A stretch of DNA of 62,022 nucleotides, the filler included, from Sphacelaria rigidula (Eukaryota): NCBI GenBank assembly GCA_964200075.2. It is 11 parts of 11 records of this genome, joined end to end, with 100 filler letters (N's around TTAATTAATTAA, not from the genome) between each part and the next. Parts side by side here need not be neighbours in the genome. Positions count along the whole stretch, not along the records: positions 33,888 to 39,434 come from CAXNAA020026444.1; 10 more parts are not named here. One strand, given 5' to 3'. A program made the translations under genes and the position numbers. The notes below the pieces were generated by a model. It saw only the letters and a program-made list of their open reading frames with translations, did no database searches and had not been told where the DNA came from. Below are positions 35,968-36,541 of this stretch, one piece after another. Within the stretch, counting starts at the first letter, position 1, and every line of letters begins with the position of its first letter.

Positions 35968-36233
35968 GAACTCGCTGTTTATGCCTGAACGCAGCGATGG
36001 ATCGGGAATGGATTTTGGTCATTATACACCATGAAAAAATGAGGAGACAACGACGCTTAGAGGGACCTAACCCCTCGTAATCCGGGAAAATGAACACATG
36101 TGCTCAAAAGTAAGTTTCCGACTTGAGTGTCACGGCGTATTTGCGGTTCTTGGAGGTAATACCTGCTTTTAGTGTGCCAACGCAACACTATATACAAACA
36201 GCTTAGAGGATATTAGCTCCTGGGGGGGGGGGC

Positions 36234-36298
36234 GTACTCATTTGTTGCTTGCCTTAGTCATTTGACCATTGACCACGCATCCCTTTCGAGACGGAGCA
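36234..36298 (-). mobile_element. Full-length mini-element family A with target-site duplication
   Basis: GTACTCATTTG...GAGACGGAGCA preceded by a G-run; flanks AGCTCCTGGGGGG (36215-36227) and AGTTCCTGGGGGG (36298-36310). Confidence 0.9.
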
Positions 36299-36541
36299 GT
36301 TCCTGGGGGGTGGATAGAGAATAGGCACTGTTGCCAGAAGACATGATGGATCCTGGTGGATGTAGCAACAGATTTTCGTAAATCAAGTGACGACAGGACA
36401 CCAGTTTACCCTCCAAATAGAGAGGAGCGAGCAGGCGAGTGATACCGTGTTGTGCAATCACCACGATCAATCACGCGAGGACGTCGAATCATTCGGTTTC
36501 CGCCAAATCATTTAACAAAAGAACAGAAAGGCGAAGATGAT

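Follow-up and report, generated by a model that had tools for sequence, protein, structure and literature searches.

The insertion at 36215–36310 and its empty allele

In the interval 36215–36310 of the window (the whole 62,022-nucleotide stretch of Sphacelaria rigidula DNA that was analysed), a 65-nt unit is enclosed by two copies of a 13-bp target-site duplication. The left copy, AGCTCCTGGGGGG, occupies 36215–36227 and is followed at 36228–36233 by the tail, which reads as five G and then a C on the plus strand, or G(C)5 in the RNA sense, the inserted sequence being on the minus strand. The boundary between this tail and the G6 of the duplication is ambiguous: the G-run at 36222–36232 counts 11 G, with the C at 36233. 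The unit itself (36234–36298, minus strand) comprises the last codons of an open reading frame (ORF), a TGA stop that is the complement of 36238–36240, and GUAC; it is the terminal 65 nt of a LINE (see below). The right copy of the duplication, AGTTCCTGGGGGG, lies at 36298–36310 and has base 36298 (an A) in common with the unit. The two 13-mers are alike at 12 of 13 positions, the duplication ends in G6 and the G-run is longer on the tail side (11 versus 6), exactly as the first-pass annotation had read this locus.

Contigs of four public runs (X3, X4, X5 and X10) were aligned to positions 33888–39050. Record 11 of X3 (797 nt) and record 19 of X4 (571 nt), from runs belonging to two studies, both follow the window over 35915–36214 and then continue directly with base 36298 and onward. 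The 83 nt that they lack (36215–36297) amount to one copy of the 13-bp duplication, namely the left one, plus the tail and the unit. This allele is the empty site predicted by the 13-bp duplication, and the insertion is polymorphic at this locus; the search for empty sites suggested at the first reading has thus yielded a precise one, in contigs of two runs. The G6 is already present at the junction of the empty allele. The sample here is one empty site, with the filled allele seen in the window only, and the empty allele could in principle also have arisen by loss of the element through a deletion involving its two 13-bp repeats.

The single mismatch between the duplication copies opposes a C at 36217 in the left copy to a T at 36300 in the right copy. 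The empty-site contigs apparently carry the T too, no difference being listed at 36300, and the C/T mismatch may be a later mutation or a strain polymorphism. The hexamer GTTCCT occurs both in the right duplication copy and in the LINE consensus just ahead of the 65 nt; a role as junction microhomology was weighed and rejected, since the intervening CC is missing.

The summed contig depth of the bin holding the unit reaches 4.26 million, compared with about 20–40 in the neighbouring single-copy bins of X3, a value that is not a copy number. Loose contig ends before 36222 are long G-runs. Joints leading from 36297/36298 back to 36222–36228 occur in 43 contigs of X3, 21 of X4, two of X5 and five of X10, and correspond to head-to-tail units with only a G-run between them. 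Behind 36298, the consensus of the loose ends runs past the unit and fits the longer window copy at 1175–1355. Very high summed contig depth was also observed in the runs for the bins 35445–35963 and 33888–34233, which are therefore other high-copy repeats. Self-reverse-complement stretches (palindromic, MITE-like) are located at 35571–35967, 17021–17354, 57148–57263 and 54623–54786.

Copies of the unit in the window and their G-runs

The window consists of 11 slices of 5547–5548 nt each, joined by spacers of the form N44-TTAATTAATTAA-N44, and contains three N10 gaps in addition. The DNA content is eukaryotic-nuclear-like across the slices, with a kinesin exon at 47503–48090. The consensus given by the first-pass annotation, allowing up to three mismatches, matches at 36234 and 58117, where no match is expected (100 shuffles). 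All nine of its listed sites were regained by blastn-short and an nhmmer profile of the tail, and three extra diverged copies (42393–42466, 44994–45081 and 45182–45256) emerged from self-BLAST and alignment, giving 12 copies in approximately 61 kb.

The nine sites hold, although several of their descriptions had to be corrected. The site listed as 1287 is a longer copy of about 176–181 nt at 1175–1355, in the plus RNA sense, with an indel in its interior and a tail that has eroded (GAGTAC-TGTACG-CCCGCC; 1175–1368 for the whole feature); it is flanked by C6 and then A upstream (1167–1173) and by CCCGCCA downstream, a candidate 7-bp duplication. The site at 5492 belongs to a minus-strand feature (5471–5548) in which G10-AA-G7-TC precedes a copy truncated by the slice end, with 57 nt remaining. 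The copy at 39535–39602, which also proved to be in the plus RNA sense, has lost its beginning to the slice start, leaving 54 nt followed by a C15 tail. On the minus strand at 42466–42541, the tail G7-A-GG-C is followed by a 65-nt copy; the tail of this copy is adjoined by a diverged subfamily copy (42393–42466, minus strand; 5′ end at 68 nt, model position), the two thus forming a head-to-tail pair. A 68-nt copy with the tail G9-C-G22 occupies 42607–42705 (minus strand). The second diverged subfamily is found at 44994–45081 (minus strand), where G19 and then TACTTAGG... are cut by the slice end, and another diverged subfamily copy, ending in GAGTAC-A-C6 and cut by the slice start, is found at 45182–45256 (plus strand). 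The copy listed at 50672 is likewise in the plus RNA sense (50656–50728): a C10 run on the target or duplication side is followed by a copy with its 5′ end at 69 nt, the tail side of which was removed by the slice end. Finally, 58102–58256 (minus strand) represents a double hit on one G-run, with a 65-nt copy (58117–58181) and a second copy of only 25–28 nt (58205–58232). The order is GGTTGAGGTG5, C, the 65-nt copy, TT, GTGTAGGTTGAGGTG8, the 25–28-nt copy and then GTGTAGGTTGAGGTG12.

A G-run at the GTAC end (G4 or more, within 0–4 nt) accompanies 10 of the 11 window copies in which the G-side is present, the sole exception being the 1175–1355 copy with its eroded tail, and it is also found in all four copies outside the window (L001, L002, L004 and L008; see below). 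The repeat with its terminal G-run, as first described, is therefore real. Read in the RNA sense, the same copies (10/11 and 4/4) carry a (C)n tail. In the three diverged subfamily copies, too, a terminal (A/G)AGTAC gives way to a C-run, so that the C tail is a trait of the group. Self-BLAST of the window revealed no shared sequence past the unit and its G-rich flank. Homopolymer runs of at least 10 nt in the window comprise 17 of G or C versus five of A or T, and from a reading of the alignment together with the run list seven of the 17 can be assigned to the LINE-tail family.

On the other side of the insertions, G6 or more occurs within 30 nt past the 5′ junction in six of the seven assessable copies, compared with a background of 1.6% (binomial P of about 1e-10), in keeping with the G-run targeting suggested at the first reading; the seventh assessable copy (42638) has G4 beyond its 5′ junction, and one other copy runs into a gap. 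One could argue that the C tail is real and the target preference absent, insertions being random and the G-runs at the 5′ junctions being due to chance or to a misassigned tail. The sample is indeed small, and two of the six positive copies adjoin the tail of another copy, which is itself a G-run target. However, the excess over background is large and the empty allele itself has G6 exactly at the junction, and we regard random insertion as very improbable. Duplications could be read in three to four cases: 13 bp at 36215, 14 bp for the 58117 copy, approximately 19 bp for the 58205 copy, which used the same G-run as the 58117 copy, and the candidate of 7 bp at 1167. In the orientation of the first reading, the layout of an insertion is a duplication ending in G, extra G's, (C), GTACTC...GGAGCA and again the duplication ending in G.

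Five of the 22 slice ends lie inside copies (5548, 39535, 45081, 45182 and 50728), and the N10 gap at 42545 begins 3 nt past the 65-nt copy of 42466–42541. The assembly may have broken at the repeat or its G-runs, or the pattern may stem from the composition of the window. Contacts of this kind, together with the fact that long G-runs are hard to sequence, could also be read as signs of an artefact (two-colour poly-G, adapter or assembly) or of an element moving at the DNA level (a MITE, a Helitron end or a minisatellite). Yet three metagenome loci, one MAG contig and four runs share this junction with the window, at varied G-run lengths, and what the filled allele has over the empty one is precisely the element and a single copy of the duplication. 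Moreover, terminal inverted repeats are absent and the unit forms the coding end of a reverse-transcriptase gene. Of all the explanations weighed here, we give this one the least credence.

The unit as the coding end of a LINE

The first-pass annotation had recommended a search for a reverse transcriptase (RT)-encoding element whose 3′ end matches ...ATGAGTAC(C)n, and such a LINE was found (L001, L002 and L008). Scanning metagenomes with a 20-mer returned six loci, three of which (L001, L002 and L004) are genuine; the other three (L003, L005 and L006) are chance 20-mer matches and were rejected as family members. In a scan of genome contigs, the unit was located on a contig of 5259 nt belonging to a metagenome bin (L007/L008), the bin G001 having a single copy, on contig C43. 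Viral contigs scanned for the unit gave no match. A G(C)n tail is common to L001, L002, L004 and L008.

L001 and L002 can be aligned along about 1530 nt, at 79% identity. In both, the 65 nt end an open frame of 504 aa that contains an RVT_1 domain (E value of 1e-13 in L001), and the TGA stop lies inside ...AAATGAGTAC, 4–5 nt ahead of the C-run. L008 contains an uninterrupted frame of 1382 aa, followed by GUAC, G and C13, and is thus an intact full-length copy; its 5′ end and a duplication were not found, the best flank-to-flank repeat being a chance 8-mer. The unit at our locus is identical to the ends of L001 and L008 at 65 of 65 positions. Two database proteins, P0002 (1360 aa, 87% identical) and P0003 (1328 aa), combine Exo_endo_phos and RVT_1 domains (E values of 1e-31 to 1e-33 for the latter) and share the C-terminus ...VVNGQMTKASNK. 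In P0002 the endonuclease is N-terminal to the RT (Exo_endo_phos at 170–392 and Exo_endo_phos_2 at 279–414). The LINE is a single ORF of roughly 1360–1380 aa with an APE endonuclease and a reverse transcriptase, and its closest named homologues come from Ectocarpus. The matches next in line after P0002 and P0003 are unnamed Ectocarpus sp. CCAP 1310/34 proteins, among them one with the C-terminus ...NGQMTTASNK.

When P0002 and P0003 were compared with the window by tblastn, only their last 16–53 residues were matched. No LINE body was detected in the window with these two proteins or with the homologues P0004–P0017; the latter gave two matches, namely the tail piece at 1176–1334 and the RT of a different retroelement at 15942–16700. 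The ORF context, the 65/65 identity and the C-terminal-only tblastn matches all identify the supposed micro-retroposon as the coding end of a LINE: the 65-nt unit forms the very 3′ terminus of an autonomous APE+RT LINE of the brown-alga type. The proposal of a very small SINE-like RNA from an undescribed family is accordingly not supported in that form, as the unit is the last codons and stop of a LINE ORF with homologues in Ectocarpus. The first-pass annotation had itself named membership of a longer transposon as an argument against its own reading. The 65 nt being the end of an autonomous ORF, this argument applies in part; the clustering of lengths at 65–69 nt (6/8; see below) keeps a tail-only retroposon as a minority reading.

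The LINE features that were looked for were all found, namely an RT, an APE-like endonuclease N-terminal to it, a simple tail, and variable duplications with an empty site. Terminal repeats are absent, and copy lengths range from 25–28 nt to full length. P0001 and P0002 show a CxC-x8-H-x4-C motif; a C-terminal CCHC motif is a feature of the L1 clade. Among solved structures, human L1 ORF2p is the best match (E value of 6.6e-21), followed by R2 proteins (8.8e-20), scores that do not separate L1 from R2. Taken together, the intact copy elsewhere, the identical stub in the window and the polymorphic insertion suggest that the LINE family appears to be active.

The last 99 nt are 94–97% identical between L001 and L002, compared with 61–85% for most of the upstream ORF. 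From this pattern of conservation, we infer that the end may serve as a cis-acting 3′ module recognized by the enzyme. Remote homologues (P0005, P0007, P0008, P0010 and P0012; 32–52% identity) carry (R/C)VV(N/Y)G 8–10 residues before their end. In the present LINE family it overlaps the part of the tail unit whose nucleotides vary least, GGTCAATGGTC, and the constraint could bear on the protein or on the RNA. It should also be noted that L008 has, by eye, a degenerate tail-like stretch in the opposite orientation at 4742–4800, in the flank beyond the ORF start, for which BLAST returns an 11-nt exact match only.

Stub length, integration and relation to known elements

The 5′ ends of the eight complete copies lie at 65, 65, 65, 68, 68, 69, 25–28 and about 180 nt. 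Six of the eight thus fall within five bases, which is unlike simple random 5′ truncation. This 65–69-nt end could be produced by a fixed stop of the enzyme, by a cut in the template RNA or by a tail-only retroposon copied in trans. The last of these would be a headless micro-retroposon, a defined RNA of 65–69 nt with a C tail that uses the LINE 3′ module and is multiplied in trans as a high-copy family of its own, its RNA being either transcribed in its own right or cut specifically from LINE or read-through RNA. The clustered ends, one of which comes from a diverged subfamily, speak for such a unit, as do the many run contigs in which 36297/36298 is joined straight to the G-run of another copy, albeit tandem units may also be amplified at the DNA level. 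The presence in the window of 12 tail pieces and no LINE body, and the fact that conservation within the LINE is highest over the terminal ~100 nt, point in the same direction. The 65- and 68-nt ends moreover coincide with the boundary between the loop and the 3′ arm of a predicted hairpin, GGAGUA-GGAACGG-UGCUCC, but this hairpin is without statistical support, the tail RNA folding no better than shuffled sequences (z from −1.4 to +1.6).

A discrete unit of this kind would also have no sequence of its own, being identical to the LINE coding end, and copies of 25–28 nt, of about 180 nt and of full length exist too. Furthermore, the loose contig ends behind 36298 continue into the LINE body (agreement of about 0.5), so that many copies elsewhere are longer. 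With regard to SINE features, a 3′ end shared with a partner LINE is present (65/65 with L001 and L008). In contrast, a head derived from tRNA, 7SL, 5S or snRNA and an internal Pol III promoter were not detected with ARAGORN and Rfam: ARAGORN predicted no tRNA gene in the window, and Rfam gave no hit at the gathering score over the whole window and none at E values up to 10 over 36150–36400. The absence of a tRNA, 5S or 7SL head, already remarked upon at the first reading, is thus upheld. We rank plain LINE stubs first, as the probable explanation, and the discrete unit second, as an unlikely one.

The explanation that we favour, and consider likely overall, is thus that the copies are stubs of a C-tailed APE LINE made by target-primed reverse transcription at G-runs. 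Retroposition by this route had been proposed at the first reading and is supported by the empty site, the variable duplications ending in a G-run, the C tail and the microhomology between tail and target; as far as sequence can tell, these data speak for priming through the pairing of C tail and G-run. The endonuclease would nick the strand just 3′ of a genomic G-run, a position deduced from the junctions, and the nicked G-run would presumably pair with the C tail of the RNA and prime cDNA synthesis. A staggered second nick in the other strand, upstream, would then give rise to duplications of approximately 7 to 20 bp ending in G. If cDNA synthesis or the template ended very early, the insertions would be dead stubs, as nearly all window copies are, with lengths from 25 to about 180 nt and in most cases 65–69 nt. 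As each insertion adds a new G-run, old tails would be struck again and head-to-tail pairs would accumulate.

The two readings may also be joined: a LINE lineage would have swapped the A-tail/T-run pair for a C-tail/G-run pair and spawned a tail-only retroposon of 65–69 nt, its RNA arising by a specific cut, perhaps within the loop of a conserved hairpin. We hold this to be possible but doubtful. If true, few known retroposons would be as small as this tail-only one, which might also be the most abundant repeat in this brown-alga-like genome and seed it with long G-runs.

In L1-type LINEs, the poly(A) tail pairs with a T-run at the nick (‘snap-velcro’ priming). The LINE family described here resembles them in the APE endonuclease and RT carried by one protein, the homopolymer tail, the tail–target microhomology, the variable-length duplications and the heavy 5′ truncation. 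It differs in that the tail is C and the target a G-run, in the single ORF, in the tail that follows the stop by 4–5 nt with practically no 3′ UTR, and in copies that are far shorter, with a mode of 65–69 nt. Models of integration lean largely on the pairing of poly(A) with T-rich nicks, and a C/G family would offer an independent test: does pairing select the sites, and is it the endonuclease or the priming that sets the preference? Short uniform stubs may in addition show how small an RNA can be and still serve a LINE enzyme as a template.

Simple-repeat tails or targets are known from the LINEs Dong, Waldo and the I factor, and the present family shares with such elements a tail other than poly(A) and a target repeat that matches the tail. 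The UnaL2/UnaSINE pair exemplifies ‘stringent’ 3′-end recognition by a LINE. As in SINEs that depend on a LINE tail, the short copies correspond to the LINE 3′ end, its most conserved stretch; unlike SINEs, they have no head derived from an RNA gene, no internal promoter and nothing beyond the LINE's own sequence. In Zepp of Chlorella, LINE copies with poly(A) tails are inserted in the tails of earlier copies. Head-to-tail nesting by the re-use of tails is common to Zepp and the present family, whereas the tail here is C rather than poly(A). Microsatellite-specific LINE families include, in the accessible text of their description, the HERO families and the (TG)n-specific Togen (PMC4640811). 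According to the same text, these encode a restriction-like endonuclease and target di- to tetranucleotide repeats (PMC4640811), in contrast to the APE endonuclease and the mononucleotide G-run with otherwise unrelated flanks found here.

In the accessible text of brown-alga genome papers, LINEs are named only as a class. The most abundant unclassified repeat of Ectocarpus, ‘Sower’, is described there as making up 1.2% of the genome (PMC3145265); compared by description only, it offers the parallel of an unclassified repeat of great abundance whose host genome also holds this LINE family. In the literature, as distinct from Repbase and Dfam, we found no description of a C-tailed or G-run-targeting LINE, and the supplements of brown-alga papers may list the family. 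The LINE family is thus already present in a published genome, and it is its C tail, its use of G-runs and its uniform tiny stubs for which no description was found.

Through its tails, the LINE scatters long G-runs, capable of forming G-quadruplexes, through the genome. Their spread, and their coincidence with slice ends and assembly gaps in the window, bear on assembly quality and genome stability in these algae. Other G-runs occur around the N10 gap at 59844–59853, where G15, G31, G15 and G19 lie within 59783–59981. Directly after two of these long runs begins a second short repeat, starting with (T)CAGACGATACATACTACAGGTC, the copies of which measure 58 nt and are 88% alike; it may represent the tail of a further retroposon family with a C tail. 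Related simple repeats are found with 3-nt offsets at 6732–6825, 11948–12038, 39192–39434 and 50329–50402, and with 2-nt offsets at 40773–40895 and 41908–41980. Finally, the window contains pieces of LTR retroelements that are unrelated to the C-tailed LINE: an RT_RNaseH domain at 10237–10719 (minus strand), an RVT_1 domain at 15513–16790 (plus strand), which shares 80% identity over 137 nt with 10991–11126, and a Pol_BBD domain with an integrase core at 24882–26644 (plus strand; rve at 25793–26644).
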